Source: Bacteroidales bacterium
Lineage (GTDB): Bacteria > Bacteroidota > Bacteroidia > Bacteroidales > WCHB1-69
Assembly (NCBI GenBank): GCA_045132235.1
Contig: JBGURX010000038.1
Span: forward strand, 5,708-69,707
Reading direction: 5' to 3'
DNA length: 64,000 nucleotides
Part shown: positions 42,065 through 60,139 of the stretch, piece by piece
Position numbering within the stretch: the first letter of the stretch is position 1
How the letters are laid out: each line of letters starts with the position of its first letter
Notes under the pieces: model-generated
Databases searched by the model: none
What the model saw: the letters and a program-made list of their open reading frames with translations, nothing else
What the model was told of the DNA's origin: nothing
Position numbers and translations under genes: made by a program

Positions 42065-42087
42065 TGAAAAGGCATTTTTGAGGCTGA

Positions 42088-45000
42088 CTACTTGGTCACC
42101 ACCAATTTCTTGGTGATCACCTTGTCGTTGTCGCGGAGGTTCACGAAGTAAACACCTGCTGACCAGCCATTCACATTCAGATCGATGGTACCGGTGTGCG
42201 TTCCATTGACAGCGTACACCACCTTGCCGCTCATATCGGTCACCGTCAGCTGGGCGCCATCCACAGTACATTGTACATGGACGATGTCGCGAGCCGGGTT
42301 CGGATAGAAATCGAGCTGGCTGAGGTCGTTGTCGTTGATACCCATAGGAGCGCCATTGGGGCTGGCAGGCACGCTGTAGTTCACGGTAGCCGTAGAGAGC
42401 ACTGTGCTCGTAGATACGGCAGACTGACCGCCAGCGTACTGGGAACCGTTGTAAGCGATACCCACATCACTACCACGCTCCATTTCAACCAAGGTAAACA
42501 CAATCTGATATTCACCCGGCTGGTTCCAAGTAGCATTAATCTGGCTATTGGTAGCTTCCATGAAGTGGAGATAGAAGTAGTTGAAGTTGAACATGTTCAT
42601 CAAGCTGAAGGTGTTTTCAATCATGTTGCCGCTTCCCTGCTCCAGGTCACTGCCCACATAGGTGTTCAATGCCGGGAAGTAGGTAGAGATGTGGATGTTG
42701 GCCACATTGTTCACCGTTGACATCGGCTGTTCACCTCTGAGAATCACATAGTTGACAGCCAATTGAGTATTCGGCTCATAGCCGTTACCCTCACAGGTCA
42801 TCTCCACAGTGGAAGTAGCAGACTGAACGGTCGCTTCATTGTAACCATTCACCAGCAGAGTCGGCAGCGTGCCATCGCCCTCTTCCTCTTCAACGGCATC
42901 CACCGTGAAGGTGATGTTGGCCGTGGACAAAGTATCGCCTACCGTGCTGAAATAACCGCCAATGTTACGGGTATGGCCATTGAACGTGTAGGTCAGATTC
43001 TGGTCTTGACCATCGTTACGGCTCATCAAAGCAAAGGCGATCTCGTACTCACCGGCTTCCGTGAAAGAATGGGTAATCTTGTTATCCCTGCCATTCAGGA
43101 AGTGCATGTAGAAGTAATCGAGGTAGTTGACACTGAATCTGAAGGTGTTGCCCGGGATGGTGCCTTCGGGTTCATAGACCACTTCACCAACATAGTTGTT
43201 CAGCAGCCAGGTACCCATATAGAGCTCACCACCGCAATCAGCATTGATATTGGTTACCAGCTCACCATCCTTGAAGACTGAGTAAGCGATGGCCACCTTG
43301 GTATCTTGATCCATGCTGTTGGCGTAAGCAATGAGGCTGTACTCATTTTCACCTGTTTCTTCAGCCACCATGAACGCTTCACCGTTATGCGAATCGGTCA
43401 CCGTCAGTTGCAACGTAACAATACTGTCGCAACCGGTAGCAGCCGTCAGATTGACGGTTTGCGAGCCGGCGGACTCGAAGATGAGGCCATTCCATTCATA
43501 CGGCAGTTCAGTTACGTCGATGGATTCTTGAACCGTCACATTATAGATCGGGTTGATGGTCAGATTGACCTCGAAATAGGTATCGCAGCCTTCCTGTTCC
43601 GGAATATAACCGGTGATCACATCATCACCACTGGTATATTCAATACCGTCAGGTGCAACATAGGTAGTACCCTCGCAAATTGCTGTATCAATCAACAGGG
43701 TAGGATTCTCATTAATCACGATGGTGACATTTTCGCTGACCACGCAAGCACCGGCATACACGCTGTAGGAGATTGCGGACTCGAACTGGTCTGCATCAAG
43801 CGACAGTACATTACTACCAATAACAGTTTCGTTGTCAATGGTCCATCTGATTGTGTCGGCATTGCCACTGACTTCGAGTGACAGAGCAGCCGTTTCAGCA
43901 TTGGCGCAGACTTCAGTACCGAACAGTTCCACTGTCAGCATCGGGTCGAAGACGATCGTCACGCGGCGGATGCTGTCGCAGCCGTTGGCAGCCTGCTGAG
44001 CGTACACCACGTTCACGGTGGTGTCACCCATCACCTCAAACTCCTGCCCGTTCTCACTATAGATGAACGGCATGTCTTGGTCGGCGCAGAAGTGAACCGT
44101 ACTGTCTGCATAGGCCGTCGGCAAAATATGCAGCGTCAACTGGGTGATGCTGTCGCAAGCGTTGTCAGTCTCATCATAGTTGTAAGTCACAACGACGTAA
44201 CCGTCCTCGTCCTCTACCCAGTCGCTGGTATTGGCACGTGTCACAGGCATATTGCGCAGCTCGGCGATTTCCTCAGCGGTCAGTTCAAATCCGTTTTCTG
44301 AATAGCCGTATCCCTCGCAAACCTCGCCGCTGACCTCAGCAAAGCCGAATTCGTCATTGTACACCGGATTGATGGTCAAGGTAAGGCGGGCATAGAAGAT
44401 ACCGCAATCGGTACGGCCTGTCTCCACCATGGTTACATACGTTCCAGTCTCAGCAGTTTCGTCTGCACTCACATTGAAGATGTCATCCACATAAGGCTCG
44501 CCTCGGCAAACCGAAGCCTCATAGTCAACAGTGTCGCCCACCGGAACAGCGGTCAGCACGACGGAGTCGGTAACTGAGCAGCTGATAAACGGGAAATCAG
44601 AGATGGGTTCGAAGGTCTGGTTCTGGTCAGGATCGATAATCTGCTGATCATTGGGCTGATCAATGACAGGAGCATACGGCAGATAGTTGTTTGTTCCTGT
44701 GAGATAGATGGTCACGGTTTCGTTCACCGTCACACTGGCTTGAAGCGGGTCGTTACCCACGATTGCCGTACCTGCCGGACCCCAAGTGTAGTCATCGGCA
44801 TTTCCAGTAGCCGTCAAAACAATCTCCCGACCTTCGCAAACACGTGTACCCGGAGTGTAGATGCCCACTTCAGGCAGCGGGAGGAGGAAGATGGTCAACG
44901 TAACCGTGCTGTCGCAACCGGCCTCTGTCTGGCCATTCAAGGTGAACACAGCGGTATTGGCACCGTTAGCCACCTGTGCGATGGTGTCGGCAGAGAGGGT

Positions 45001-48000
45001 GAAGTTATTATCCTCGTACGGAGCATTCTCGCAAACGAAAGCCGTGTCGAACAGTGCATAGGCCGGATTCACCGTCAGGGTGAAGGTGACCACCGTGTCG
45101 GATACCTGATACGGGTCGGAGAACTCGATCTGCTGAGGTTCTTCAGTGGAAGCCGTGAATTCATGACCGTGATATACGAACGGCACTTCGGTGGAGCAGA
45201 TAACCGTGTCGAGGTCCATATACACCGTGTCAACAGAGTAGTGCATCACTATAGAGTCAACAGCGAGGTCGCCGGCGATTCTGGTAGAGCCGCCACCACC
45301 CACCAAGTGCGGGTCATTCTGATTGAAGGTCAGGACATAGTCTTCACCTCCTTCGCGGCCACGCAGGTAGAACTTGATCTTGTAATCACCCGGCAAATCC
45401 CAACGTGCAGTGAGTTGGCTCGGGGCCTGGTTGAGGAAGTCAAGGTAGAAGTAGGTGTAGTAATAGTTCATTATTCTGAAGGTATTGGCGGGAATGCTGC
45501 CCGTACCCGTACGCAGCTGTCTGCCGAAGGATCCGTGTGCATCGGCATAGTAAGTGCTGAAATAGACATATCCGAAGTCTTCCACATTGTCGAGGATTTC
45601 ACCGTTACGGTAAATCTCATAGTCAACAGCGACCTTCATGTTGTCAAGACCGCCGCTGGTGACATCCACGCTATACTGAGCGGTCTCACCCAACTCAGCA
45701 GCCTCGGTGACCGTATTGATGTCGAAGCCGGTGGTAGAGGTACCCAGTACGATATGGAGGATGCTGTCGCAACCATTTTCACGCTGGTAAACGATATCAT
45801 ACTCACCTTCGGTTTCGTAGATATGGTCGTCATCGTAAGCGTAAGGCAGCTGCATCGGAGCCACCGTCACATGGAGGGTGTCGCTGTATGCGCTGTTCAC
45901 TGTCAGATGCAGGTTGTAAGTGGCGGTGCAATCGCCGTAAGGAGCATCCGTCGTGTAGTTGCCAGATTCTGTATAGGTTTCACCGGTCACATCCCAGATG
46001 AACGAACCGCAAGCCATCGCAGCGGTGTCGATGACCACGCTGCCGTCGGTGCTGTGAAGCAGATGCAAAGTGGTAATCAAGCTGTCGCAACCCGAAGCGT
46101 AACGCACTGTATCGTAGAAGTCACCGACGCCGGTGTAGGTCACGCCATTCCATGTGTAGCTGCTGCAGTCATCGTTCAAGGTCACCGTGAACTCGTCATA
46201 AGAGACCGTGTTGACCGTCACGTTAATCGGATACATCTGGTAATTGCCTTCATTACCGGCGAAGACCTCGTAGTAGCCTGCACCCGTAATTTCAGTGCCA
46301 TATTCGTAGAAGGGCAGATCACGTTCGCAAACCACCGTGTCGAGGCTCGGCATTGTATCCACAACACCCACATGGAAGTTGATGTAACGGATATCAGCAA
46401 AAATTCTGCCATTAGGCTGAGAACCTGCGCCACCCATCACCTGACCGTGGTCATCCGTATAAGCATAGTCCATACCGCCATCCATGCCGATCACCACCAG
46501 TTCGAGTTTGTACTCGCCGGGTTCATTCCAGCTGGCCGTCACCGTGTTGGTGAGGGTAGCGAAGTAGTCGGCATAGAAGTAGTCGTAATCGTAGTTGTAG
46601 AGCGAGAAGGTGTTGCCCGGGACATTACCGGTACCCGTTCTCACCACATCACCGAACTGCTGACCCACCTCAGGCATATAGGTGGAGATGCTCACACTGC
46701 CATAGTCGCTCACAATGTCAATCAGCGTGTCGTTCTTATAGAGATTGTAGGAGATGGCCATTTGTGCACCCGGATAGTCGCAATCCTTGCGGAGGTTGAA
46801 TTCCGCAGAAGCAGCCTGGTTCACCGGCATCACCACGTCGGCAACCGGAACATCCAGATAAGGCTCGTTGGAGATGGTGAACTCAAGGGAGTACACGATG
46901 CTGTCGCATGCGTGATTATCAAGGTCGCTGAAGCTACTGACGCAAGGCACCACCTGTGTACGATAGATAACGGTGTCAGCCATTGTCACATCACCGATGG
47001 CCTCACCCGTCACAGGCCACACATAGGGCTGCAGCGGGTTGTTGCAGTAATGTACTCTCACAGAACGCTCGATCGGATAGGTCACATCCAGCATGAGATA
47101 TACCACACTGTCGCAGCCGCCGTCCGTCGTATATTTGAAGGTGTAGGCACCCGAGTGATCGCAGACGGTTGGCGGATAGTAATCGGGATCAAACACATAG
47201 TTGAGGTCAGAGGCACAGATATGGACAGTCGTATCCTTTGCGATGAGATTGACGCGGAGTGAAGCCTCGGCAGTGGCCGAACAGCCGTTCTCTGCATCGT
47301 ATCCCGTCACCGTATAAACCCATGTACCCTGAGCCGCCGGTGTAGCGTTCACATCGGCACCCACTTGAGCGTCAAGTCCTTCACCGCTCCATGAGAAGGT
47401 TGCACCTTCCAATGTGCTGCTGGCACTCAGGTGGTAGGAAGGACCAAGGCAAACGGTGTCAAAAGCAGGAGTAACCGTGAGGTGGAGTGACGGATGAACC
47501 GAAATCTGCACCGCATTGCTGTAGCCCACGCCGCATGCGTTGGTGTCGGCATAGCGCAGCCACATATTGTTCCACGTATCAGCATCCACACCGTTGTTCA
47601 CATCCACAGCCGTGAGGGTGTTATCAGCGGTAAGGGCGCTGTCGGCACTCAAGTACCAGAACGTGGCCAGTGAATTCAAGCCGCCATCGTCCACAACCTC
47701 AGGTGTCTCAAGGTTGAATTCGTCGCCGGAGCAGTAGGTGGCGCCTGAATAGGCAAGCTCACCCAGTGTCGGGACATCGTTCACCAGCAACAACACGGAA
47801 TCGGTATGCATTGCACCACATTCATTGCCAATGTAGTAGCGCACCCATGTGTTGTTCATACCATAGTCGATGATGGTGTCATCGGAGAAGCGGATGTAAT
47901 AGTCTGAACCGTAAACTGCCGTGTACTCCCAGCCTTTCACGATAGTACCACCGAACTCATGTGTTACAGGCGGAACGACGGCCAAAGTCTGACCGGCACA

Positions 48001-51000
48001 AACCGCACCTTCAAGCGCGGTGAGGTTCTCTGCCCAAGGAGACTCCCAGAACTCCAGCGTGATGGTGTCGGACAACACCTCGCCGCAGCCATTGGAAGCA
48101 TAATACCATGCCTTCACCGTATCAGAATAGCGGAACTCCTGTGAGGCATTGAAATCAACATCCTCGCCATTAATGTTCAGACGCCAGCCTTGTTGAGTAT
48201 CGGCATTGCTGTTGTTGTGCCACTCGATTTCAGGCACGTAGGAATCCCAATCGAAGGTGGTCGGTGCACACATCGGGTCGGGCTGCTGCAGTGATGCAAC
48301 AACCGGCAGGCTATCCACCGTAATCTGAACGGCATTGCTGTAGCCTGTCTCGCAGAGTGTGGTCACATAGTAGCGCACCCACCAGCCGTTGTAGCTTTCG
48401 CTCACGGCAACTGAATCGGTGAACTCTTGGAAAGTCACACCATCCTGTGAGCATTCCCAACCCTGTGCCTCCACTGTTACGCCAAGTTCTGACAGATAGG
48501 TGGTGAACGACGGGGTTGCAATACCCAGCGGATTGCGGGCGCAAATGCGTGCAGGAGCCTCGATAGTGGCAATATCAGCAGGATTCAGCACATAGATGGT
48601 CTTGGACTTGCACTCGGTGGCACCGCAGACTTCAGATTCCAGTCTCACGAAGTAAGAGGTGGTAACCGTCGGGGTGACTGTCACAGAAGCGTAGCTGCTT
48701 TCCATACCCCGTGAAATCTCCACGCCGTCGCAGCTTCCAGAGGTCCACACGTAATCAGTAATGTCGCCTTGTGAAGCACCCACAGCCGAAATGGTGGCAG
48801 ACTGACCTGCGCAAATGATCGTATCGGTAGCGTTGAGCTCCATTTCCTCGACAGAAGAAGGATTGCAGATCCTCACAGAGAATCTACGAGCGTTTTCTGA
48901 TACACAGCCGAACTGAGTCTCACCTGTGAGGGTGTAATAAATGTTACCCAAGAAGTAGCGGTTGGAAGTTGCTGACGGGAAGTCGCTGGTGGAAGCCGTA
49001 GCATCCGCGCCATAACCCGCATGTACTTTCAACACGTTGGTACTCGGAGCGGTCAGCACATCGCCGATGTGAATACCCTGTGTATTGTTGGACGAAATAC
49101 CATAAGGTCTGAAATAGAGGTTAGCATCGCTCATCACATAGAAGCTGAATTTCTGACCAGCGTAAATTTCGACAGGATTGTCCAACGGGATGTTGCAAAG
49201 CGTTGCCTGGGTCTGGTGGAGGTTTCCATTGTAAACGAGGTTCCAGCCCGCGCTGTTGGTGGCTGCACCCTCGCAGCTACCCAAACGGCAATACACCTTG
49301 ACATTCGATGCGTTGTTTGCATTGTCGGAGTAACGCGGGTAGAAGCTGATGGTGTCCACCGTAAGGTTGGCGCTGGCGGTCAGATCCACAAAGACACCCT
49401 TTCCGTCTCTATCGTAAATATCCAGTTCTTCCGGATTGGTGGAGAAGGAACCCGACACCGAGATCAGGTCGGTGGCAGCGTATGCAAAGAAGTAATTATT
49501 ACCACTAGCGTAATCATAGGGAGGCTCAATATGGAACGCTTCCCCACTGTTGCTATAGCCAAGGAAGTTGTTATCGGCATCCATCCACAGCAGCCACGGC
49601 TGTTCTTGCTCGGCGTCACTTTGAGCGTATGCAGTCTGACCAGCGAGCAGGATTTCAGATCCGCGACAAACACGATTGCTGGCAGCAGGTTCTCCATTTT
49701 CATCGGACACGTATGCAATGCTAGGTCTATCGATTGCTGTTATGGTCACACTGACTTCAGTAAGCTGTGACTCGCAGAGGTATCTTTCGGGGAAGTAGTA
49801 ATGGATACGCACATAACCGTTCTGGGTATTGCCATCGGGTTTAGCGGGGTAAACGGATACGCTGCCCGCGAGGGTTTGTGCGTCGGTGAGGTAGAGGTTG
49901 CTGTTGAGCAGGCAACCTGACGGGTAGTTCTGTGCGGTTTCTTCGGTATAGATGTAGCCGCTACCGCCGCCACCGCCGCCGTTGATGTTACTGCCTGCGC
50001 CAGCGGCACCGCCGTACCAGCCGCCGCCGCCACCGCCGCCATTGAGGGCGACACCTGTATAGGCTCTACCGAAGGCATTGTTGCTATGGTCGCCAGAATA
50101 GGTCTGGCCACCGCCCTCGCCGCCGGGCACCTCCTGCGTGCCACTCAAGCCCGACTCGCCGATTCCGCCGGCCAAACCGCCGCCGCAACCACCAGCCACT
50201 TGATAATTGCCGCCCATATAGCCGCTACCGCCGCCACCACCAGCCACAATCAGACGGCTGAAGTAGTGGTCGTTGCTGTTCACATCGGCATGGAGGAGGG
50301 AGATGTCGGATGCACCGCCACCGCCACCGCCGATACCTTCAGACGCGGGCTGACCGCCGTTGTAACCGCCGTTGTTGACGTGGCCATTGACACTGCCGCC
50401 CACATACACAAACAGGGAGTCAATGCCTTCGAGCTGGGTGAGCGTACCGCGGGAGTAACCGCCACGGCCGCCTTTCGCCTCAGTAAAATCAGTTATCATG
50501 TTACCGCCATCGGCACCCCACACCTCCATGGTGATACGGGTAGCCTCAGCGGGGATTGCGAAGCCCTGCACATCGCCAGTGAACACGAAGTCGCGCTGGC
50601 CCTCCACCGAGGAGGCAAGCAGGCTACGATAAGCCTTCACGTAGTAGGTGGTATTGGCAATGTTCTTGCCGCCTTCGAGATCGAAATAGATACCGCGGTT
50701 CACCTCTTGCGTGCAAGCGGCATCGGAGTACCAAATATAAGTATAGCTATCATCAGGATTGTCAATCACCAGTCTGCCGGGAGTACCGCAAACCAACTGC
50801 AGGTTTTCCACTTCAGGCTGTACGAGTTCCTGTATCGTGATGATAACCGGAGTAGGATCAATCAAACAGAGTGTATCATATCTGGGAGCGAGATAGGAGA
50901 TGATGGCGACGCCATTGCCTTCGCGGCCGGTGATGCTTGCACCGCCTTCCGGATTCGGCATGGCAGCGTTGCCAGAGATCAGGGCAGGACTGTAGAGGAC

Positions 51001-54000
51001 GCTGGTGTAGTAGCCGCTACCGCCGCCGCCGGCACCTGCATTGGGGGCACCTGATGCACCGCCGCCGCCGCCGAACCAACCGGCACCGCCGCCGCCGCCG
51101 CCAGCGTAGCCGCTGCCGCCATTGCCGCCATAACCAGAGCCGCCTGCAGTAGCACCCGTAGCACCTGTACCACCCATTTCGGTGGTGGCACCTGTACCGT
51201 TGACACCCGTCACATTGGTGTTACCGTCGCCGCATGCGTTACCGCCACCATATCCACCATTGCCGCCAGCGGAAGCACCGCCACCGCCACCGGCCACAAG
51301 GATACGATGCTGCACGGTATTGCCGCCCAAGCGCACATCGGTGGCACCGCCACCGCCAGCACCCGGACAATAGCCGGCATTACCCGTGCTGGCAGAGCCG
51401 CCATTACCGCCGCCGTTGAAACCGCCTTCAATGGCTCTACCCGTCTCACCATTAACACCGTCGTTGCCTTGTCCACCGACATTCACATACAGTCTTTCGC
51501 CCTCTTCAACGTGCAGCGTACCGACAGCATAACCGCCGTTGCCACCATGGCGGGTGACCGACGAGCTGGCCACTGCATTACCACCCTGGGCACCCCAGAG
51601 TTTCAGCGTCACTTCGTTCACATCGTGAGGAACGACGAATTCGAAGGTTTCGCCTGAGTAGTTAATCACAGAATCCACCAGATCGATACCTTCTGTGGTG
51701 CGGAGGCCGAAGGCGCGCACATAGTAGGTGGTGGTAGCACCGATGGCCGGGAGTTCCCATGTGGTACCCTGATGCAGCAGCTGTGTACACTGCGCATCGG
51801 CGTACCAGTTGTAGAACAGGCCTTCAACGGGATTGACCACCTCAAGGGTAGCCGTCTCACCGCAGGAGATTGTAGCTCCATTCACCTGCACCGGCTGGGC
51901 CGGAGCCACGGTAAGGTTCACCGTACCATTCTGGGAATAGCAGCCCTTGCCCAAACCTCTGTAAGAGATGGTCACATCATCCAAATTCACGCGCAAGGTA
52001 CTGCTTGATGAATATTGATGACGGAAAGCGATGTAAACCGTACGACCTGCGTAGGATGACAGGTCATACACATGCTGCTGATAGCCAGCGGACTGGACAA
52101 TAGTTTCAGAATTGATCATATTGACGAAGTCGTTGACCGAAGTACCCGTAGTAGATACATACACCTTAAATTGCGTAGAACTGGTACTGCCGGTACTCAT
52201 ATTCTGTCCCATGGTCCACCAAGAGAGGGAGACCTCCTGCGAGCCTTCCGGAATATAGACAGCCGGCGTCACCAGCCAGTTATCCGGTGACAGATAAGGA
52301 CTAAGCAAGGTCGGCACATACAACAATGACGATACAAAGTTGCTACCTGTATGAGCAGCATCAGCGGCGTTGGTCAGTGACCATCTATAGCCATCACCAT
52401 CATTGTCGATACGAGTCCAATTGGCAGGAATAACGCCTCCTTCGAAGCTCTCGTTCAGCAGGTAATCTGCCGGCTGGAGGAGGTTGCTGTAGCTGCGCAG
52501 GTAATAGGGATAGGTGCCTTCACCTTGTGTTACAGTGAGGGCCGTACCCTGAGCGAGCGTATTTTCAAAATTGGCATCATCGCTCCACTCATAGAGGAAG
52601 GCCTCATCCGGATTGCTCACCTCCAAGGTGACCGGCTGGCCGCAAGCGGCTTGCATATCCTCGCCCGACGGTATGGGGTGGCTGTTCACCTCCACCGTAT
52701 GTGACACCGGGCTGGAGGGGCAGGCTGACTGCAAGCCCGCTGCCACATGCCACAGGGTGGTGGTTTCGGTCAAGTAAGGCAGTGTAACCGTGGAACCCGT
52801 AGCATAAAGCTCGGTACAGCCGGCATCCAAGAACCATGAGTGCTGCACTTCCACATCTTCCACAGCGGTTAATTCAGCGGAAGCACCGCAATAGAGCGGA
52901 GTAGAGTAGTCCGTTATCAGATTTTCGTAGGGGTAAGTCCACGGAGCCAAAATGGTGATGGTGTAACTACCTTCGGATTCCACCTCACGGCTTTGATCAC
53001 ATCTATCCAAAATCGAACGGGTGTATGTGTAGCTACTGCCTACGGAAAGGGTCTGAAGTTCTTCTACGCTAATGGTATAGTATGCATTATGTGCATTTTC
53101 ATTGTCGATGAGTACACCATCGCGGTACCAATTGTAGCTTTCCGCTCTTCCGTTGTCGAGGGAGGCGATGGTGAAAGCTGCCGACTGACACACCTCGCTG
53201 CTACCCTCTGCAATTGCACCACCAACAGAAGTCGATGCAGGAGCCAGAGTAAGCTTAAGATTCAAACGATAATTCTGGACATACTTCGTACCGCTATATG
53301 AACCCATATTGTAAGGATTGGGATCATAGCTATCGCTATGGCCAGATATCAATGCACTCGTAGCCTCTGTATAATAGAAGTAGAGAGTACTATAACCCGA
53401 AGTGTATTCATGCATACCTATCATCAAGTTACTATTGCCATCATAATCAAATGGTTCGTCAAGCGTAATGGTTGTCCAACCCTGACTAAAGGTTACGGTA
53501 CCACTAAACACCCTGTCAGCCGCTGTTACAGGCTCCCAGTCTGTATTGTCGGCGAAACTGCTTCTGGACACATTCTTCATGAAAACATCCACGCTATTGG
53601 TTTGTGTGCTACTGCTTGACATGTTAAAACTAATTGAAGTAATTTGACCAGAACCGCCAATTTCAGCAGCAGTATAAATCTGCTCCACATAAGAGTAACC
53701 CCACAATGAATTGAACGGGCCATAATAGGTTGTTCCCGTGCCATTTCCAATCGTAATTTCATCAGGAGTAGCTAACGCGCTCTCTGGTCTGAAGCTAACC
53801 ACATTGCTCCAGTTGGTGCTTTGTCCGAGGTCGGAGCCGCAATCGGCTTTCACTCGGGCATAATAGTTTGTACCAGGTATCAAGCAGTTAATGGTGAACG
53901 GATTTTCGGTCACCACCTGCTGCTGTGTGGTAGTGCTAGTGAAACTAGCGCTGGTGCTGTATTCCAAAATCCAGCTGGTGGCGTCACCTGCCTGATCCCA

Positions 54001-57000
54001 TCCAAGAGTGGCGCTCCACGCCGTCAAGTCATTCACATGGAGGTTGGTGGGGGTGGGACACATTTCCAAAGTGGTGAAATAGATAGGATCGCTCCAATCG
54101 CTCTCCACACCATTACAAACACTCTGCACCTGGGCACCATATAAGGTTTCAGGAGACAGACCCGTAAGGGTATAGGGATTCGAAACACCGCTCAACGCAT
54201 CGAATGTGCCTAAGTTAATGCCGTTCGTCGTCTCGGTTAAATTAACGCCATCACCATCTGACATACTTTGTAAAAACATCTCAAAAGTATAGGTATGACC
54301 TGCTTGGAACACAAAGTCATTAGCTCGTGCATCTCTGTTACCATTTGCCCCCGCTATGTAAATCTTATCATTAGGAGAGGGGTTGGTGATACACCAGTCG
54401 TAAGTACCGGCAGGGAGCAAAATTGTCACGCTATTGTCTCTCACCACATTTTCAGTACTACAATCGCCGTCTGCATTGGCAGGGATCTTGATTGGGAAGT
54501 TCGCATAAATACCCTCGTTACCTGAGCAGGCAGCTGACAAATAGCCAGAGGTCGGGATAACGGAACCATAGAGACTATGGGTGGGGTCAAGCAACAGTTG
54601 GTATCCAGTACCGTCGCTCCACACATCACCCGCCACCAATGTTACGATGGCGAAATCGCCTTCCACACTGCGGATATTGAAGCTTTCACCATTGCCGCTC
54701 CACAGGAGTTCCGTACTGTTGTAAGTGGTGTTGTCGGCACTGAGGTTGGTGGGCGCCGTAATGGCGAAGTTGGCCACCAGATGACGGTCGCCCGTAGCTC
54801 TGAACATATAAGTGGCATCGGTAGAGACCACCGTTCCATTTTCCGTCCAGTTGACGAAGCCCAGACAGCCTTCACCAGAAGTTGCAGTAAGGATGACAAT
54901 ATCCTGACATGCGGCATAGACACCCGTACCGCTCACGGTGCCCGTACCGCTCGGACTGACCTCTGCTGAAACAGTGGCCGTACCGGCGCTCGTCTGGTCG
55001 CAGAGGCCAATATGCAGCTGATTCTTTACGTTCGTCACATAACCCGAATAGGAAGAGGGGCTTGACGGATTGAAGGCTGTACCATCCTGATAAATGTAGA
55101 TAGCCTGATTGCCATCAGCGGGATAGACATAGCAAGCCATTCCAGATGAATAAGAACCCGTCTTGTCATTCACCACCACCACGAGATTGTTGACGCCATC
55201 GTACTCAAACGCGCGGTCCAATTCGAAAGTAATCCATTCACCAGCGGTCATCGAAACGGTAGAAGTGCCGCTATATACCTTATCGGCATTGGTTACCGCA
55301 ATCCAGTCGCTGCCACTTGCAAAACTTTCCTTTGCAGTATGTTTCATGTAGATGTCGTATTGACGAGCGCGTGTTTCACCTCCGTTGTAGAAGGAGATGC
55401 TGCTGATGGTACCGCCGCCGCCGATTTCGCAGGGGGTATAGATCTGCTGCGTAAGGGAGTAATCATAGAAACTTTCCGAGGGAAGGAAAGCATTGGTGAC
55501 GGAGCCACCGCTGCCCAACACTTCCACGGTGGGACAGACGCGGGCCAATGTGGTGAAGGTCACCGGTGAAGACCAGCTTCCTGGCTCACCCTCGCAAACG
55601 CCCTGCACCCGCACCTGATAAGTGGTACGGAAGGCAAGGTTGTCGAGTGATGTGCTGGTGGTGCTGATATTCGTAGCGGCATCAATCCAGCTGTCGGCAG
55701 AGGCAAGCTTATACTGTACATTGTAGCTGTCGGCGTTGCCGCTCCAAGTAACATCGGCGCTGGCATCACCAATATTGGACACTGCCAAGCCGCTGACGGG
55801 GCAGGTTTCCAGTGTGGTAAAGGAAACGGGAGCGCTCCAACCACTATTGGTACCGTCGCACACACTTTGCACCTGTACCAAATATGTGGTGCCGGCATCA
55901 AGTCCAGAGAGGGTTGTGCTTTCCGAGTTGCTAGAAACCACAACAGGTGTACCCGGAATTTCCATCAAAATGTCATCAATATAGAACTTGTCCTCATAAT
56001 TATTCACACTACCATCCTTATCGTATGACCATTTGAAGGTATGAACACCCGCAGCAACAGAGTAGGTATGTTGTCTCCAGTCTATTTCACCTTCTTCTTG
56101 TAATTGTTGCTCTCCATCAATATAGAAGCGACCATGGTCGCAACAGCTTTCTGAAGACACACGGCTATAGAAGCTGATGGTACCTGCCACAGGGTATGTA
56201 GCCATCAACGAAATTTCCGATGAGGTGGAGACGAAACCTGAGCTACTGGCGAGACAGTAAGCACCACTATGCGGAGTAACGCTGGAGATACTCCACGGAT
56301 AAGTATTATTATTATCGAAGGCTGCATCTATGCTGCCATCATTGAAATCATACGCACCCACAATGGGGTAATAGCTTATGTTGTATGAATCGCCACTCCC
56401 ATTCCATGAAATATCTGCAGTATGGGCTGTTTCATTACCCACAACAAGAGATACTGGCGGAGAGCAGGACTCAAGAGTCGTAAACGTAACAGGACTGCTC
56501 CAAGTGCCACCATTGCCGTCGCAAATCCCCTGCACCTGCACCAGGTAAGTGGTTTCCGGGGTGAGGCCGGTGAGGGTGGTACTCGTTGAGCTGCTGCTCA
56601 CTATTGTGGGGGTACCAGGAATCAATAAGAGAACATCATCAATATAGTATCTATCCTCACCGTTGTCCACACTAACATCCTTGCTGAAAGACCATGTGAA
56701 GATATGAGTACCCGCAGCGACGGAATATGTATGCTGTCTCCAATCAATTTCTCCCTCCTCACTATATTGCTGGACTCCGTCAATATAGAAATAGCCATGG
56801 TCGCAACAGCTTTCTGAAGATACACGGCTGTAGAAACTGATGATGCCTGTCGAAGTGAATGTAGCCGTCAGCGAGATATCTGAAGTAGTGCTGGCGTAAC
56901 CACCGTTTCCACTACCAATACAATAGCTACCACTATGTGGAGAGGTAGATGAAATGCCCCACGAATAGGAGGAGGAATTGCTGAAACCGGAGATGCTTCC

Positions 57001-59622
57001 ATTGTTAAAATCATAGGAGGCCAATTCCGTCATGGCAGCATAGCTCACATTGTAGCTGGAGCCAGAACCACTCCATGAGATATCGGCGGTACGACCAGTT
57101 AAATTGCTCACAATAAGACTAGTAGGAGTAGGAACATTCACCACGAAGTTGGCTGTCAGCGTGCGAGCGCTACTGACCGTGAACGAATAATTCGGATCAG
57201 TTGACACCACCGTACCATTCTCAGTCCAGTTTTCAAACACATAACAGCTGGACGAGGGAGTGGCGGAAAGGCTGGCGGTACCGCACATGCTGACGCTACC
57301 TGCACCGCTCACCGTACCTGCTCCGCTGGGGTTGACATTGGCGGTGATATTGGCCGTACCCGAGCACTTCGCTATCGAGATATTGTCCACTGCCGCAGGA
57401 GGCTGGGTACCGCCACTGCCGTCGTTGGCCCACATGAAAACGAGGTAGTAATTGCCCGCTGACACGCTGGGGGTAGCCAGATGGGTTTGCCAGTCGGATG
57501 ACACATTCAACTTAGAGCCGCCATCCAAAGAGATCCAGCCACTTGGAGAAGAGCTCATATAGCTATATGAGGAAGTACTACCATCTGGGAGCACACCTGC
57601 AGTAAAAGTGGCCGAAGCAGGAGCCAGCCACACTCTCAAATAGTCATAACTACCCTCACCATAGCCTTTCCAGTCGTAAGATACATTGTATTGTCCTCCC
57701 CCAAATGACAACAATTTGGTGGCATAGGATATTTGAATACTGCCGACAGTGTATGCATTGCTGGATCCACCGTTGTTGGAAATGTAAAGGCTATGGGTGC
57801 CACCGTGGTTGGTAGCCGTGCCGACAACCCATGCATTTGTACTGTTCACGAACTCCCACTGGGGAGAGCTCTCAAAGGTCTCTGTCCAACCATTGTCAAC
57901 TGAAGTAGCTTCTATCGAGGTAGTGAAGGAGATAGGGCCTGCCCAGTTGCTCTGCTCACTGCCGCAATTGGAACGGACATAAACCTCATACGATGTCAAT
58001 GGAGAAAGTCCTGTGAGAGTGTAAGAAGAGGTAGTGATTCCAGTAACGGTGACGGGGGCACCAGAGCCCATGGCGGAAATATTGACATTGTCAATGCCAA
58101 GTCCATAACCATATTCATCGGTGTGCCTGAAGCCGATTTGACAATTAGCAGCACAAGCGGCTGCAGGGAGTGTAACACTCTGTGTTGTCCACCCAGAATG
58201 TGCCGCTGTTGTACTAAAAACAGGTCCCTGCCAAGCGCCTCCATTTAAGCGGTAATAAACATATAAGTAATCGATGTCACCACTCCAAGAACGATTCACA
58301 TAACTGAATGAAAGAGTGGCGTTAGATGCACCGCTCAGATCCATGGAGGGTGTAATCAGGTAGGTCGTATTACCTGTTGAAGAATGCGTTATCATTGCGT
58401 TATAATTTCCCGAAGCGGCACCTGTACTTGACGAATAGTCACCCGTACCAACCGACCACGAACTACTTCCAGAACTCGACCAGCCCGAGGGCATGGAACC
58501 TCCTTCAAATCCCTCATTCAGGTATGTGGTGGACGCAACAGTCATATACTGCAAATCGTAACTACTAGCATCTCCCGTCCAACTAACAGAAGCCGTGCTT
58601 GACGTTATATTTCCAACAGTAACATTGGTAGGTCTTGCGCAGGAAGGTCCTGAACCCGGGGTAATGCAAAGCTTAATATTATTGCGGTATTGTGTATAGG
58701 ACTTGCTTCCACTAAAAGAAGTGGTTGAAAGTTCTGGACAATAGCTATCGCTATACCAATGAATACCACTGTAAAAATCTGTTGTGTGTGTACGGAACTT
58801 ATATGAACTACCTGGATAGCCACTGGTTGGGTCATACATACAGACCAGGAGGTTGCTGCTACCATCATACTCAAACGGAGTGGTGAGGTTGATGGTTATC
58901 CAGCCCGAACTACTGGCAGAAAAGGTGCCATTCCATACCAAATCACTGGCTGAAATAGGCTCCATATCGGTGTTGCTTGAAAAAGAAGATCTACTCACAT
59001 TCTTCATATAAAGCTTTACATTCGACATAGAGAAGCTACTGGAATAGTCATAATAGAAGCTGATGGAGTTGATGGTACCCGCTGTCCCTATTTCATCAGG
59101 TTTGTAAAGCTGTTGAGTTAGCGAGTAATTAAAATACATATTGACAGGGTAGTAATAGTAAATAGTTGTACCACTACCAATCGACACCTCATTGTCGCAG
59201 TCAGCTGTGGAGCCACCGCCGCCGCCACCGCCAGGGCAAGTGTAGGTTGCAGGGAATCCACTTCCGCTACTACTGGATACAAGCGTCTGTCCACCAACAG
59301 AAACTGTATAAGAAGTCTCACCATCCCACGAGCCGGAGGTCCATGTCAACTGAATAGTAGTGCCGGCGGGAATATTAACCGTACCGCTATTTGAGCTACC
59401 ACTACTGATAGTCAGAGTAGCAATCGTGGAACTCGTACTTGCATTAATTACATTAATGGCAGCTCCGTTCCATCCGTCACCATAGCTGTCTGTAAGACTA
59501 TAGCTTAAGGTACACTGTCCCCGTAAGCTCTGTCCGAAGCCGAAGCACATCAGCATCGCCAACAGCAGGGGGAGTTGGGCAATGCGGGAAGATTTTTTCT
59601 GAAAGGATAAAGTTGCTTTCAT
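42088..59622 (-). CDS. Giant (5,844 aa) mosaic T9SS-secreted surface protein
   Basis: Longest ORF in the window. The track start is 59691, but the in-frame ATG at 59622 is directly followed by a signal peptide (MKATLSFQKKSSRIAQLPLLLAMLMCFGFG). The C-terminal 75 aa match a T9SS type-A CTD. My residue count of the track protein closed exactly at 5867, and spot checks at both ends agreed with the nucleotide sequence. Confidence 0.9.
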   Translation of the reverse strand: MKATLSFQKKSSRIAQLPLLLAMLMCFGFGQSLRGQCTLSYSLTDSYGDGWNGAAINVINASTSSTIATLTISSGSSNSGTVNIPAGTTIQLTWTSGSWDGETSYTVSVGGQTLVSSSSGSGFPATYTCPGGGGGGGSTADCDNEVSIGSGTTIYYYYPVNMYFNYSLTQQLYKPDEIGTAGTINSISFYYDYSSSFSMSNVKLYMKNVSRSSFSSNTDMEPISASDLVWNGTFSASSSGWITINLTTPFEYDGSSNLLVCMYDPTSGYPGSSYKFRTHTTDFYSGIHWYSDSYCPELSTTSFSGSKSYTQYRNNIKLCITPGSGPSCARPTNVTVGNITSSTASVSWTGDASSYDLQYMTVASTTYLNEGFEGGSMPSGWSSSGSSSWSVGTGDYSSSTGAASGNYNAMITHSSTGNTTYLITPSMDLSGASNATLSFSYVNRSWSGDIDYLYVYYRLNGGAWQGPVFSTTAAHSGWTTQSVTLPAAACAANCQIGFRHTDEYGYGLGIDNVNISAMGSGAPVTVTGITTSSYTLTGLSPLTSYEVYVRSNCGSEQSNWAGPISFTTSIEATSVDNGWTETFESSPQWEFVNSTNAWVVGTATNHGGTHSLYISNNGGSSNAYTVGSIQISYATKLLSFGGGQYNVSYDWKGYGEGSYDYLRVWLAPASATFTAGVLPDGSTSSYSYMSSSPSGWISLDGGSKLNVSSDWQTHLATPSVSAGNYYLVFMWANDGSGGTQPPAAVDNISIAKCSGTANITANVNPSGAGTVSGAGSVSMCGTASLSATPSSSCYVFENWTENGTVVSTDPNYSFTVSSARTLTANFVVNVPTPTSLIVSNLTGRTADISWSGSGSSYNVSYAAMTELASYDFNNGSISGFSNSSSYSWGISSTSPHSGSYCIGSGNGGYASTTSDISLTATFTSTGIISFYSRVSSESCCDHGYFYIDGVQQYSEEGEIDWRQHTYSVAAGTHIFTWSFSKDVSVDNGEDRYYIDDVLLLIPGTPTIVSSSSTSTTLTGLTPETTYLVQVQGICDGNGGTWSSPVTFTTLESCSPPVSLVVGNETAHTADISWNGSGDSYNISYYPIVGAYDFNDGSIDAAFDNNNTYPWSISSVTPHSGAYCLASSSGFVSTSSEISLMATYPVAGTISFYSRVSSESCCDHGRFYIDGEQQLQEEGEIDWRQHTYSVAAGVHTFKWSYDKDGSVNNYEDKFYIDDILMEIPGTPVVVSSNSESTTLSGLDAGTTYLVQVQSVCDGTNSGWSAPVSFTTLETCPVSGLAVSNIGDASADVTWSGNADSYNVQYKLASADSWIDAATNISTTSTSLDNLAFRTTYQVRVQGVCEGEPGSWSSPVTFTTLARVCPTVEVLGSGGSVTNAFLPSESFYDYSLTQQIYTPCEIGGGGTISSISFYNGGETRARQYDIYMKHTAKESFASGSDWIAVTNADKVYSGTSTVSMTAGEWITFELDRAFEYDGVNNLVVVVNDKTGSYSSGMACYVYPADGNQAIYIYQDGTAFNPSSPSSYSGYVTNVKNQLHIGLCDQTSAGTATVSAEVSPSGTGTVSGTGVYAACQDIVILTATSGEGCLGFVNWTENGTVVSTDATYMFRATGDRHLVANFAITAPTNLSADNTTYNSTELLWSGNGESFNIRSVEGDFAIVTLVAGDVWSDGTGYQLLLDPTHSLYGSVIPTSGYLSAACSGNEGIYANFPIKIPANADGDCSTENVVRDNSVTILLPAGTYDWCITNPSPNDKIYIAGANGNRDARANDFVFQAGHTYTFEMFLQSMSDGDGVNLTETTNGINLGTFDALSGVSNPYTLTGLSPETLYGAQVQSVCNGVESDWSDPIYFTTLEMCPTPTNLHVNDLTAWSATLGWDQAGDATSWILEYSTSASFTSTTTQQQVVTENPFTINCLIPGTNYYARVKADCGSDLGQSTNWSNVVSFRPESALATPDEITIGNGTGTTYYGPFNSLWGYSYVEQIYTAAEIGGSGQITSISFNMSSSSTQTNSVDVFMKNVSRSSFADNTDWEPVTAADRVFSGTVTFSQGWTTITLDEPFDYDGNSNLMIGMHEYTSGYSTLYFYYTEATSALISGHSDSYDPNPYNMGSYSGTKYVQNYRLNLKLTLAPASTSVGGAIAEGSSEVCQSAAFTIASLDNGRAESYNWYRDGVLIDNENAHNAYYTISVEELQTLSVGSSYTYTRSILDRCDQSREVESEGSYTITILAPWTYPYENLITDYSTPLYCGASAELTAVEDVEVQHSWFLDAGCTELYATGSTVTLPYLTETTTLWHVAAGLQSACPSSPVSHTVEVNSHPIPSGEDMQAACGQPVTLEVSNPDEAFLYEWSDDANFENTLAQGTALTVTQGEGTYPYYLRSYSNLLQPADYLLNESFEGGVIPANWTRIDNDGDGYRWSLTNAADAAHTGSNFVSSLLYVPTLLSPYLSPDNWLVTPAVYIPEGSQEVSLSWWTMGQNMSTGSTSSTQFKVYVSTTGTSVNDFVNMINSETIVQSAGYQQHVYDLSSYAGRTVYIAFRHQYSSSSTLRVNLDDVTISYRGLGKGCYSQNGTVNLTVAPAQPVQVNGATISCGETATLEVVNPVEGLFYNWYADAQCTQLLHQGTTWELPAIGATTTYYVRAFGLRTTEGIDLVDSVINYSGETFEFVVPHDVNEVTLKLWGAQGGNAVASSSVTRHGGNGGYAVGTLHVEEGERLYVNVGGQGNDGVNGETGRAIEGGFNGGGNGGSASTGNAGYCPGAGGGGATDVRLGGNTVQHRILVAGGGGGASAGGNGGYGGGNACGDGNTNVTGVNGTGATTEMGGTGATGATAGGSGYGGNGGSGYAGGGGGGAGWFGGGGGASGAPNAGAGGGGSGYYTSVLYSPALISGNAAMPNPEGGASITGREGNGVAIISYLAPRYDTLCLIDPTPVIITIQELVQPEVENLQLVCGTPGRLVIDNPDDSYTYIWYSDAACTQEVNRGIYFDLEGGKNIANTTYYVKAYRSLLASSVEGQRDFVFTGDVQGFAIPAEATRITMEVWGADGGNMITDFTEAKGGRGGYSRGTLTQLEGIDSLFVYVGGSVNGHVNNGGYNGGQPASEGIGGGGGGASDISLLHADVNSNDHYFSRLIVAGGGGGSGYMGGNYQVAGGCGGGLAGGIGESGLSGTQEVPGGEGGGQTYSGDHSNNAFGRAYTGVALNGGGGGGGWYGGAAGAGSNINGGGGGGSGYIYTEETAQNYPSGCLLNSNLYLTDAQTLAGSVSVYPAKPDGNTQNGYVRIHYYFPERYLCESQLTEVSVTITAIDRPSIAYVSDENGEPAASNRVCRGSEILLAGQTAYAQSDAEQEQPWLLWMDADNNFLGYSNSGEAFHIEPPYDYASGNNYFFAYAATDLISVSGSFSTNPEELDIYDRDGKGVFVDLTASANLTVDTISFYPRYSDNANNASNVKVYCRLGSCEGAATNSAGWNLVYNGNLHQTQATLCNIPLDNPVEIYAGQKFSFYVMSDANLYFRPYGISSNNTQGIHIGDVLTAPSTNVLKVHAGYGADATASTSDFPSATSNRYFLGNIYYTLTGETQFGCVSENARRFSVRICNPSSVEEMELNATDTIICAGQSATISAVGASQGDITDYVWTSGSCDGVEISRGMESSYASVTVTPTVTTSYFVRLESEVCGATECKSKTIYVLNPADIATIEAPARICARNPLGIATPSFTTYLSELGVTVEAQGWECSQDGVTFQEFTDSVAVSESYNGWWVRYYVTTLCETGYSNAVQITVDSLPVVASLQQPDPMCAPTTFDWDSYVPEIEWHNNSNADTQQGWRLNINGEDVDFNASQEFRYSDTVKAWYYASNGCGEVLSDTITLEFWESPWAENLTALEGAVCAGQTLAVVPPVTHEFGGTIVKGWEYTAVYGSDYYIRFSDDTIIDYGMNNTWVRYYIGNECGAMHTDSVLLLVNDVPTLGELAYSGATYCSGDEFNLETPEVVDDGGLNSLATFWYLSADSALTADNTLTAVDVNNGVDADTWNNMWLRYADTNACGVGYSNAVQISVHPSLHLTVTPAFDTVCLGPSYHLSASSTLEGATFSWSGEGLDAQVGADVNATPAAQGTWVYTVTGYDAENGCSATAEASLRVNLIAKDTTVHICASDLNYVFDPDYYPPTVCDHSGAYTFKYTTDGGCDSVVYLMLDVTYPIERSVRVHYCNNPLQPYVWPVTGEAIGDVTMADTVIYRTQVVPCVSSFSDLDNHACDSIVYSLEFTISNEPYLDVPVADVVMPVNQAASAEFNLRKDCDYPGAQMAISYNLYKNDTLIDIVSDYGSVSISTYMPEVGQQFGDVVRTGTGNVPGNTFSLYNYDYDYFYADYFATLTNTVTASWNEPGEYKLELVVIGMDGGMDYAYTDDHGQVMGGAGSQPNGRIFADIRYINFHVGVVDTMPSLDTVVCERDLPFYEYGTEITGAGYYEVFAGNEGNYQMYPINVTVNTVSYDEFTVTLNDDCSSYTWNGVTYTGVGDFYDTVRYASGCDSLITTLHLLHSTDGSVVIDTAAMACGSFIWDVTGETYTESGNYTTDAPYGDCTATYNLHLTVNSAYSDTLHVTVAPMQLPYAYDDDHIYETEGEYDIVYQRENGCDSILHIVLGTSTTGFDINTVTEAAELGETAQYSVDVTSGGLDNMKVAVDYEIYRNGEILDNVEDFGYVYFSTYYADAHGSFGRQLRTGTGSIPANTFRIMNYYYTYFYLDFLNQAPSQLTARWDLPGDYKIKFYLRGREGGEDYVLTFNQNDPHLVGGGGSTRIAGDLAVDSIVMHYSVDTVYMDLDTVICSTEVPFVYHGHEFTASTEEPQQIEFSDPYQVSDTVVTFTLTVNPAYALFDTAFVCENAPYEDNNFTLSADTIAQVANGANTAVFTLNGQTEAGCDSTVTLTIFLLPLPEVGIYTPGTRVCEGREIVLTATGNADDYTWGPAGTAIVGNDPLQASVTVNETVTIYLTGTNNYLPYAPVIDQPNDQQIIDPDQNQTFEPISDFPFISCSVTDSVVLTAVPVGDTVDYEASVCRGEPYVDDIFNVSADETAETGTYVTMVETGRTDCGIFYARLTLTINPVYNDEFGFAEVSGEVCEGYGYSENGFELTAEEIAELRNMPVTRANTSDWVEDEDGYVVVTYNYDETDNACDSITQLTLHILPTAYADSTVHFCADQDMPFIYSENGQEFEVMGDTTVNVVYAQQAANGCDSIRRVTIVFDPMLTVELFGTEVCANAETAALSLEVSGNADTIRWTIDNETVIGSNVLSLDADQFESAISYSVYAGACVVSENVTIVINENPTLLIDTAICEGTTYVAPDGIEYTSGDDVITGYIPEQEGCDTYFEVNLTINPIYNVTVQESIDVTELPYEWNGLIFESAGSQTVNLTAATGCDSIVTLQLTVTDSHNGEAFMVAEETGENEYSLIAYANSMDQDTKVAIAYSVFKDGELVTNINADCGGELYMGTWLLNNYVGEVVYEPEGTIPGNTFRFSVNYLDYFYMHFLNGRDNKITHSFTEAGEYEIAFALMSRNDGQDQNLTYTFNGHTRNIGGYFSTVGDTLSTANITFTVDAVEEEEGDGTLPTLLVNGYNEATVQSATSTVEMTCEGNGYEPNTQLAVNYVILRGEQPMSTVNNVANIHISTYFPALNTYVGSDLEQGSGNMIENTFSLMNMFNFNYFYLHFMEATNSQINATWNQPGEYQIVFTLVEMERGSDVGIAYNGSQYAGGQSAVSTSTVLSTATVNYSVPASPNGAPMGINDNDLSQLDFYPNPARDIVHVQCTVDGAQLTVTDMSGKVVYAVNGTHTGTIDLNVNGWSAGVYFVNLRDNDKVITKKLVVTK
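42091..42324 (-). other. T9SS type-A C-terminal sorting domain of the giant protein
   Basis: LSQLDFYPNPARDIVHVQCTVDGAQLTVTDMSGKVVY...GWSAGVYFVNLRDNDKVITKKLVVTK. Confidence 0.85.
49777..50595 (-). other. Glycine-rich domain copy 2 (Pfam Gly_rich / ALK-LTK GRD type)
   Basis: aa 3033-3305 of the track ORF: ITMEVWGADGGN...GGRGGYSRGTL...LFVYVGGS...GGGGGGASDISL...RLIVAGGGGGSGY...GGGGGGGWYGG...GGGGGGSGYIY...NGYVRIHYY. Confidence 0.75.
50887..51654 (-). other. Glycine-rich domain copy 1 (Pfam Gly_rich / ALK-LTK GRD type)
   Basis: aa 2680-2935 of the track ORF: VTLKLWGAQGGN...GGNGGYAVGTL...LYVNVGGQG...GAGGGGATDVRL...RILVAGGGGGAS...GGGGGGAGWFGGGGGAS...GGGGSGYY...GNGVAIISY. Confidence 0.75.
54226..54654 (-). 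other. Gingipain/HagA adhesin-like domain (DUF2436 type)
   Basis: aa 1680-1822: DVWSDGTGYQLLLDPTHSLYGSVIPTSG...IPANADGD...LLPAGTYDWCITNPSPNDKIYIAGANGNRDARANDFVFQAGHTYTFEM...DGDGVNL. Confidence 0.7.
55804..57132 (-). repeat. Tandem in-frame duplication (2 units of about 221 aa) inside the giant gene
   Basis: Units aa 854-1076 and 1077-1296 align throughout. An identical 26-mer CCATGGTCGCAACAGCTTTCTGAAGA occurs at 56795-56820 and 56132-56157, giving a period of 663 nt. Confidence 0.85.
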
Positions 59623-60131: not shown

Positions 60132-60139
60132 TATTTTTG
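60132..60139 (+). promoter_or_regulatory. -7 box (TAnnTTTG) for truB-anmK
   Basis: TATTTTTG lies 25 nt upstream of the ATG at 60165. It sits inside the track ORF that starts at GTG 60054, which argues for the shorter start. Confidence 0.5.

Follow-up and report, generated by a model that had tools for sequence, protein, structure and literature searches.

Slightly more than a quarter of the 64,000-nucleotide (nt) stretch of DNA shown above, which belongs to an uncultured Bacteroidales bacterium of the gut (from contig JBGURX010000038.1 of assembly GCA_045132235.1, and called the window here in its whole length) is taken up by a single gene, whose predicted product of 5,844 amino acids (aa) is probably a giant, non-enzymatic adhesin fiber exported to the cell surface by a type IX secretion system (T9SS). 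The protein joins a conserved C-terminal stalk of ~2,600 aa to an N-terminal head of ~3,200 aa that differs from relative to relative, and alignment with a close strain shows the gene to be a hypervariable island in a backbone that is otherwise ~96% identical, with alleles that are far older than the genome around them. The split between conserved stalk and variable head and the hypervariability relative to the flanks are points that go beyond the first-pass annotation of this DNA, which was made from the letters and a list of open reading frames (ORFs) and had described a mosaic T9SS surface protein with a binding role, a description that the domain content supports. The features discussed below are collected with their coordinates in Table 1.

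The 17.5-kb gene is real and intact. Its frame runs on the minus strand through 5,844 codons to a stop, with no internal stop and over 27.4% of the window, as the first-pass annotation had stated, and such a length is far beyond chance. The frame is open from a GTG at 59691 (42088..59691, 5,867 aa) and its first ATG is at 59622; the ATG is the sensible start, since the predicted leader (MKATLSFQKKSSRIAQLPLLLAMLMCFGFGQSLRG, followed by Q) begins there. The mature product would be very acidic (pI 4.07), with a mass of ~621 kDa and with Lys and Arg at 1.0% and 2.2% of residues. It could be supposed that a frame of this kind is an artefact of assembly, i.e., a strain chimera or a repeat mis-assembly, or else a decaying pseudogene, and the assemblies of relatives do break inside the gene (L004 in the region of the glycine-rich domains, L001 and P0007 by truncation). 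We consider this exceedingly improbable in view of the stop-free frame, the intact orthologues of 5,798-5,949 aa and the relatives of 6,634 and 7,769 aa that occur in independent assemblies, and the conserved order of modules in the stalk. The sole DNA repeat within the gene is one 293-nt pair at 74% identity, so that repeat collapse is unlikely, and nonsynonymous divergence (dN) stays below synonymous divergence (dS) throughout the comparison with a close strain, which together with the frame being intact in independent assemblies argues for a functional gene.

The gene also appears to be transcribed by itself. The stem-loop of an intrinsic terminator lies 23 nt beyond the stop codon, the gene that follows on this strand is served by a separate TATTTTTG box (of the form TAnnTTTG; 41993-41986), with an ATG in frame at position 41954, and the upstream gene, truB, is divergent, with its own TATTTTTG box at 60132-60139. 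On these grounds the monocistronic transcription unit that the first-pass annotation had proposed, from a strong terminator and a gap of ~540 nt (542 nt in fact), is well supported. No credible ORF and no Rfam family was found in the 542-nt gap, and a search across the whole window for Rfam families and tRNAs likewise gave none. An invertible promoter or phase-variation switch was considered and rejected, the best inverted repeat flanking the gap being 20 nt at 75% identity and an exact TAnnTTTG being absent there from the strand of the giant gene.

Both ends of the protein carry predicted export signals, in keeping with the earlier description. By inspection and hydropathy residues 14-24 of the leader form its hydrophobic core, between an n-region with Lys and Arg and a c-region that ends in SLRG before the Gln, and the predicted cut by signal peptidase I (SPase I) leaves this Gln as the N-terminus of the mature protein. 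At the other end, the type A C-terminal sorting domain (CTD) scores 55.3 bits with TIGR04183 (cutoff 23) and 51.7 bits with PF18962 (Por_Secre_tail; cutoff 27). The cleavage motif of the sorting protease PorU places T, E, D or N before the cut and G, A or S after it (PMC10202324), and a candidate site, between the N and the G of SPNGAP, was read by eye against this motif just before the CTD. Three more ORFs in the window bear CTDs, making four with the giant gene, and since CTD proteins and T9SS core genes occur together with few exceptions (PMC10202324), it is likely that a T9SS is encoded in the source genome.

The head begins with a module, named here for its YGDGWNG string, that is bracketed by Cys37 and Cys129 and followed by a linker of seven Gly residues, as had been noticed in the first reading; the same module is found in the mosaic proteins P0166, P0180, P0167 and P0161 at 43-56% identity. 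Self-comparison bears out the three copies of a module of ~175 aa, for which there are ~60 metagenomic homologues, mostly fragments on short contigs and none of them with a Pfam model for the region. An AlphaFold (AF2) model built from the alignment of these homologues is a beta-sandwich (pLDDT 94.7) whose Foldseek neighbors in the Protein Data Bank (PDB) are weak (TM <=0.6), the best being carbohydrate-binding modules (CBMs) of acetyl-xylan esterases (7tok and 7toh) and the others the Cwp84 lectin-like domain, PHR domains and CBM35. These neighbors would suit a substrate-capture scaffold for the breakdown of plant fiber in the herbivore gut, in which the lectin/CBM-like heads tether the cell, or enzymes secreted separately, to polysaccharide and which would be a special case of the adhesin; one relative does come from a metagenome-assembled genome (MAG) of horse faeces, and the label of other related contigs (TONG22-1, see below) probably points to the buffalo digestive tract. 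We think so specific a role rather unlikely, as the likeness to CBMs is weak, the searches gave no domain of a glycoside hydrolase or esterase and neither a cohesin nor a dockerin, and the neighboring genes are housekeeping genes and not a polysaccharide utilization locus.

Much of the remaining head is made of FN3 domains, and the first-pass annotation's remark that other domains are nested within them proves to be literally true. With a hidden Markov model (HMM) made from the intact copies, four FN3 domains are seen to be interrupted at one and the same profile position (~44/46) and two are intact; the four inserts are of ~160, 140, 125 and 160 aa, the first being a MAM domain and the fourth DUF2436. 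The two tandem split copies are up to 77% identical as protein, and a 293-nt stretch of their DNA is 74% identical from one copy to the other. The DUF2436 insert (PF10365, 155 bits) matches PrtH in the PDB (9isp, E 1.4e-33), and the Cleaved_Adhesin region matches the adhesin domains of Kgp (4itc, E 6e-17; 3m1h, E 1e-15). Profiles also uphold the other assignments made at first reading, namely two InlB-B-like domains, gingipain/HagA-like and choice-of-anchor-J domains and two ALK/LTK-type domains, with residue numbers that had been set 10-26 too high (NWTRIDNDGDGYRWSL, for example, begins at 2401 and not at 2411), and they recognize several Ig_7 domains as well.

Two of these families are shared with the gingipain/HagA proteins of Porphyromonas gingivalis (Cleaved_Adhesin with Kgp K1-K3, and DUF2436 with PrtH), which are also T9SS type A cargo, although the giant protein is far larger than a gingipain. 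With this resemblance, and with the knowledge that type A cargo is sometimes released rather than anchored (PMC10202324), the product might be taken for an adhesin complex like those of HagA and the gingipains, released and cut by proteolysis between its domains after export, whose fragments would serve as soluble or vesicle-borne adhesins of a haemagglutinin-like nature and not as one anchored fiber. That is quite unlikely, in our judgment. The protein has one copy of each adhesin domain and no tandem HA repeats, its DUF2436 sits inside an FN3 loop, and ~95% of it is unrelated to the gingipain/HagA proteins; no C25 protease domain was found in it (Pfam, NCBIfam and PDB searches) or among the window ORFs scanned, its low Lys and Arg contents imply few cleavage sites of the gingipain type, and the collinear stalk of 2,600 aa is more in keeping with one structural unit.

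Where the head meets the stalk there are two glycine-rich domains (GRDs) of the ALK/LTK type (ALK_LTK_GRD, aa 2673-2911 and 3032-3275), with a total of 135-160 bits for PF12810, far above its cutoff of 24.5. A profile made from the bacterial GRDs reaches structures of the human ALK ectodomain over ~215 residues at a marginal E of 0.006-0.02, whereas a single-sequence search of the PDB with the first GRD gave no match, ALK being reached by profile only; the profile result is in accord with the strong match to PF12810, but makes plain that the bacterial GRD and human ALK are only remotely related. The likeness to the ALK/LTK GRD (PF12810; 7mzw, 7n00, 7nx3) thus lies in two domains that pass the family threshold by a wide margin, and the difference in their use as a repeated cassette between Ig-like modules of a secreted bacterial protein and in the weak match to the human domain itself (E ~0.006). 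The solved ALK/LTK ectodomains show a lattice of polyglycine-II helices. Literature searches on bacterial ALK-type GRDs and on giant T9SS proteins gave nothing specific.

The stalk consists of Ig_7-like modules, a ~250-aa domain without family (aa 3345-3590), repeats of ~90 aa (aa 3657-4072), ~13 repeats of ~50 aa each with the consensus C..LPY.WNG...GCDS.V.L.LTVN between aa 4118 and 5434 (GCDS repeats), and the four Tyr-rich modules that the first-pass annotation had counted in the C-terminal ~2,500 aa. The AF2 model of the Tyr-rich module (~160 aa) is again a beta-sandwich (pLDDT 89.5), and when its fold was searched for, neither the PDB (at best E 0.08, TM <0.3) nor BFVD gave a significant match. 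With 21 copies of the Tyr-rich module combined into a profile, 373 proteins were retrieved from 1.84 billion representatives, and for 23 of these E was <=1e-30. Nothing significant was found for aa 3300-5770 in Pfam or the PDB, and a PDB search with the last 2,545 aa gave nothing credible. By a tally of domain spans, Pfam models cover ~36% of the residues of the whole protein and ~64% are without one, so that the earlier term "unassigned" holds for most of the protein with respect to Pfam; it does not hold in the wider sense, as hundreds of T9SS proteins from metagenomes contain these modules and relatives of the whole stalk are in GenBank. Arrays of 20-40 near-identical GCDS repeats were seen in other T9SS cargo (P0003, P0004, P0013, P0020, P0022 and P0026) under heads that vary, e.g., Peptidase_C10 with its inhibitor domain, LRR, or FN3 with cleaved adhesin, and precomputed Pfam lists suggest that no model covers the arrays in these proteins.

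An enzymatic reading of the giant protein was rejected. No HExxH motif, as had been noted at first reading, and no HxxEH motif was found in it, none of its four GxSxG strings lies in a hydrolase context, and searches of Pfam, NCBIfam and the PDB revealed no catalytic family. The domains that can be recognized (MAM, FN3, Flg_new_2, DUF2436, Cleaved_Adhesin, Ig_7 and GRD) all serve binding or scaffolding.

Homologues were sought with the last 1,491 aa and the first 309 aa of the protein and, as a marker, with PolA, for which the nearest named match is a MAG at 76% identity. The relatives of the giant protein are proteins of 3.4-7.8 thousand aa from Bacteroidales MAGs, collinear over the C-terminal ~2,600 aa and named at NCBI only as "glycine-rich protein" or "T9SS type A sorting domain-containing protein"; MCK9338528.1 (P0174), HPT52251.1 and HNW67929.1, for instance, are all "glycine-rich protein [Bacteroidales bacterium]". 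Their sizes include 5,886 aa (P0175, with cluster mates of 5,798 and 5,949 aa), 6,634 aa (P0332) and 7,769 aa (P0325), these three being ENA/Logan proteins, and 4,529 aa (P0179), and the horse-faeces relative mentioned above is a partial protein on JAKSMF010000024.1. From aa 3270 to 5844 the alignment with P0175 is a single high-scoring segment pair of 2,613 aa at 63% identity, whereas the first 3,270 aa align in rearranged patches only, one of which, at 82%, is above the identity of the stalk. The same division is seen in more than ten relatives, where coverage is complete over the last ~2,600-3,300 aa and for the most part missing over the first ~2,500 aa. What the giants share is the collinear stalk with its Ig-like modules and GCDS repeats, the Tyr-rich modules in the arrangement 1+1+2 (four each in the window protein, P0001, P0005, P0006 and P0174-P0179), the type A CTD and the GRDs upstream; what differs is the content and order of the N-terminal ~3,200 aa, with the stalks 49-63% identical and with 4, 5 or 7 GRDs in relatives as compared to two here. 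By these comparisons the protein belongs to an uncharacterized family of giant T9SS proteins that is already present in public data, and its head is shown to be built by module shuffling.

A scan of genome contigs for the locus itself gave two loci, the better of them 49% identical, truncated and not syntenic. Public assemblies were seen to end inside the gene (L004 and L005 begin within the GRDs, and truncation also affects L001 and P0007), and the database homologues of head modules are mostly fragments of 170-540 aa on contigs of 1-8 kb; it follows from these breaks and fragments that short-read assemblies under-represent the family. Near-identical contigs are labelled TONG22-1, and their tie to a survey of the buffalo digestive tract (PMC8831627) is probable, though it could not be verified.

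The evidence for hypervariability comes from L004, which carries a contig-truncated allele of the giant gene (P0322, which clusters with P0175 at 90%) in the corresponding place on the chromosome. The genes downstream of it come in the order of the window, with the 837-aa protein first, then the two DUF5689 lipoproteins, and after these ribBA, apbE, mlaD and an aminotransferase. The flanks of the two strains are 95-98% identical in nucleotide sequence and the flanking proteins differ at 2-16 residues, whereas going 5' into the giant gene identity drops from 93% in the CTD to 84, 79, 71, 65 and finally 50%, with indels in the GRD region. Estimates by the Nei-Gojobori method give dS of 0.16 and dN of 0.008 in the flanks, as compared to dS of 0.45-2.3 and dN of 0.10-0.66 in the giant gene. 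It is this contrast in identity and in dS that makes the locus a hypervariable island, and the high dS points to import of alleles by recombination or to their long-term retention, and not merely to a faster change of amino acids.

Base composition follows a similar course. The G+C content at third codon positions (GC3) lies at 0.43-0.54 for the 2,500 codons at the 5' end, the initial 500 being at 0.43, and at 0.60-0.66 in the 3' half, for a value of 0.57 in the whole gene, while that of housekeeping neighbors is 0.72-0.84. The climb from 5' to 3', i.e., from head to stalk and CTD, runs parallel to the gradient of identity with the orthologue, and is what would be expected if the 5' parts had been imported more recently or from donors of lower GC. 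The GC contrast claimed in the first-pass annotation is real at third codon positions, but its overall figures were exaggerated, the N-terminal third being 46-51% GC rather than 40-45% and the neighbors 52-64% rather than 55-65%.

If the biology of the T9SS as it is known elsewhere (PMC10202324) applies here, the protein would pass by the Sec route to the periplasm, where PorV/Sov-type machinery would recognize the CTD; PorU would then remove it and the new C-terminus would probably be attached to anionic lipopolysaccharide (A-LPS). A protein so anchored would hold its conserved C-terminal ~2,600 aa next to the cell as the stalk, a geometry that we infer by analogy, and its N-terminal ~3,200 aa would project outward with three CBM/lectin-like sandwiches, the inserts in FN3 loops, the cleaved adhesin and two GRDs, through which the head would bind ligands such as the glycans of plant fiber, mucus or other cells. 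Exchange of alleles by recombination, under diversifying or balancing selection on the exposed structure, would be the cause of the hypervariability.

Several points weigh against the picture of an anchored, polymorphic fiber. The ORFs that were scanned in the 64-kb window include none of the T9SS core genes (porK/L/M/N, sov, and those of the porU/V type), and the possible release of type A cargo, already raised, applies to it as well (PMC10202324). The 542-nt gap has no exact TAnnTTTG, the -7 box of Bacteroidetes, on the strand of the giant gene, and no canonical promoter was found on that strand. The likeness of the ~175-aa module to CBMs or lectins is weak (TM up to 0.6) and names no ligand. 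Finally, the hypervariability is drawn from one pair of strains and from the downstream flank only, and dN/dS is imprecise because dS in the stalk is near saturation.

A different surface role would be that of a gliding-motility adhesin, propelled over the cell surface by the gliding machinery like SprB or RemA of Flavobacterium johnsoniae, the giant or lectin-type T9SS motility adhesins, with which the protein has in common that it is a very large, repetitive adhesin of T9SS cargo type. The size of the giant protein is comparable to that of SprB, at several hundred kDa. RemA, like the giant protein, has a type A CTD and is PorV-dependent (PMC10202324). The features that mark SprB (a type B CTD, SprB repeats and a need for SprF) were not found, however: the CTD is of type A and not type B (no match to TIGR04131/PF13585), there is no match to the SprB_repeat (PF13573), though some relatives in the list of homologues carry it, the 837-aa protein encoded downstream matches no PorP/SprF-like family, and the scan of window ORFs revealed no gld genes. 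Gliding is, besides, unusual among gut Bacteroidales. We regard this role as very improbable, and a non-enzymatic, T9SS-exported adhesin fiber as the probable nature of the product.

Table 1. Features of the giant gene and of other loci in the window (positions are those of the window; residues are those of the giant protein)
Feature	Residues	Position	Strand	Basis or remark
Giant ORF		42088..59622	-	5,844 codons
Sec-type signal peptide	1-36	59515..59622	-	hydropathy and sequence inspection
Cys37...Cys129-bracketed YGDGWNG module	37-130	59233..59514	-	without Pfam model
Gly7 linker	131-137	59212..59232	-	
CBM/lectin-like ~175-aa beta-sandwich, copy 1	142-324	58651..59199	-	self-similarity
Split FN3 holding MAM (380-516)	328-367 and 527-568	57919..58641	-	profiles
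Stretch without Pfam match	570-745	57388..57915	-	
InlB B-repeat (Flg_new_2), copy 1, divergent	760-828	57139..57345	-	E 1e-10
Two tandem split FN3, one insert each	831-1049 and 1051-1270	55813..57132	-	inserts of roughly 130-140 aa
~175-aa module, copy 2	1363-1535	55018..55536	-	self-similarity (1363-1513)
InlB B-repeat (Flg_new_2), copy 2	1553-1621	54760..54966	-	E 4e-6; also self-match
Split FN3 holding DUF2436 (1658-1795)	1623-1651 and 1813-1851	54070..54756	-	
~175-aa module, copy 3	1954-2130	53233..53763	-	self-similarity
Cleaved_Adhesin / choice-of-anchor J	2388-2552	51967..52461	-	PF07675, 96-98 bits
Two ALK/LTK-type glycine-rich domains, Ig_7 between	~2650-2911 and ~3010-3275	49798..51675	-	PF12810
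Conserved stalk	3270-5772	42307..49815	-	collinearity with P0175 and at least 10 other cluster representatives
Tyr-rich beta-sandwich module 1	4271-4429	46336..46812	-	
Tyr-rich module 2	4648-4806	45205..45681	-	
Tyr-rich module 3	5425-5589	42856..43350	-	
Tyr-rich module 4	5604-5765	42328..42813	-	
T9SS type A C-terminal sorting domain	5773-5842 of 5844	42097..42306	-	
Intrinsic terminator		42020..42065	-	14-bp stem, 8-nt loop (hairpin 42065..42030), then T-run
Upstream non-coding gap, 542 nt, up to divergent truB		59623..60164	-	
837-aa protein with signal peptide, directly 3' of giant gene		39441..41954	-	
Two paralogous 413-aa DUF5689 / M949_1556-type lipoproteins		38181..39422 and 36921..38162	-	
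M6-like metalloprotease, 1,030 aa, type A cargo		29217..32309	-	GC3 0.57
862-aa ORF, type B sorting domain		24710..27298	+	CHU_C / TIGR04131
FN3 protein, 1,099 aa, type A cargo		6845..10144	-	GC3 0.63

The rest of the window is largely a housekeeping neighborhood, with murD, polA, a Na+-pyrophosphatase gene, recF, fabF, rnc, sodB, ribBA, apbE, truB and anmK. The 837-aa protein encoded directly 3' of the giant gene has no match in Pfam, NCBIfam or the PDB, and from its sequence looks like an outer-membrane beta-barrel. With the two lipoproteins it forms a trio that is conserved in L004, whereas the L001 contig, which bears a more distant relative, yielded no homologue of it; the idea that it might be a dedicated partner of the PorP/SprF kind was dropped for want of a family or PDB match and of a homologue on that contig. 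A PorP/SprF partner usually adjoins type B cargo, and the neighbors of the 862-aa type B ORF are an M23 peptidase upstream and a FabD-like acyltransferase downstream, neither of them PorP/SprF-like. The genes of the two other type A cargo proteins share the low GC3 of the giant gene as compared to 0.72-0.84 in housekeeping genes.

Two further sites in the window were noted. Just past anmK, positions 62001-63000 have a GC content of 0.39, and a Logan contig of 2.7 kb (L006, from SRR25030090) is 100% identical to window positions 60650-63319; the low GC together with a gene on L006 that matches HicB (window ~62338-62673) suggests the insertion of a small toxin-antitoxin unit. At the other end of the window, a 98%-identical strain (TONG22-1 scaffold_103, L003) has, immediately upstream of murD, a gene for a Y1 transposase. 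Positions 1-509 of L003 were compared with 822-2186 of the window, the L003 alignment ending at window position 2225, and the window counterpart of the transposase is an ORF of 454 aa with no family match and with an odd GC content by codon position (GC1 0.73).

No part of the genomes of gut Bacteroidales is less well understood than their giant surface proteins, and metagenome assemblies routinely break inside their genes; the window provides a complete and uninterrupted example with a full map of its modules. What is known of the T9SS is left unchanged by it, and a known kind of cargo, the giant multidomain adhesin-like protein, is extended. At least four recurrent families without a Pfam model (the 175-aa sandwich, the Tyr-rich sandwich, the YGDGWNG module and the ~50-aa GCDS repeat) become targets for domain curation and structural work. 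As a tentative extension, one that we would lean against while thinking it worth stating, these proteins may form a system of polymorphic adhesins in which a conserved, T9SS-anchored stalk, with folds absent from the PDB (the four Tyr-rich sandwiches and the GCDS repeats), serves as the chassis on which lectin-like and glycine-rich heads are swapped by recombination, the GRDs binding ligand and very old alleles being retained in a single species through balancing selection that phages, the immunity of the host or substrate niches exert. The conserved stalk and the variable head are separable units, and a hypervariable island of the kind described here is the signature that would be expected under pressure from phages, host immunity or substrate specialization.

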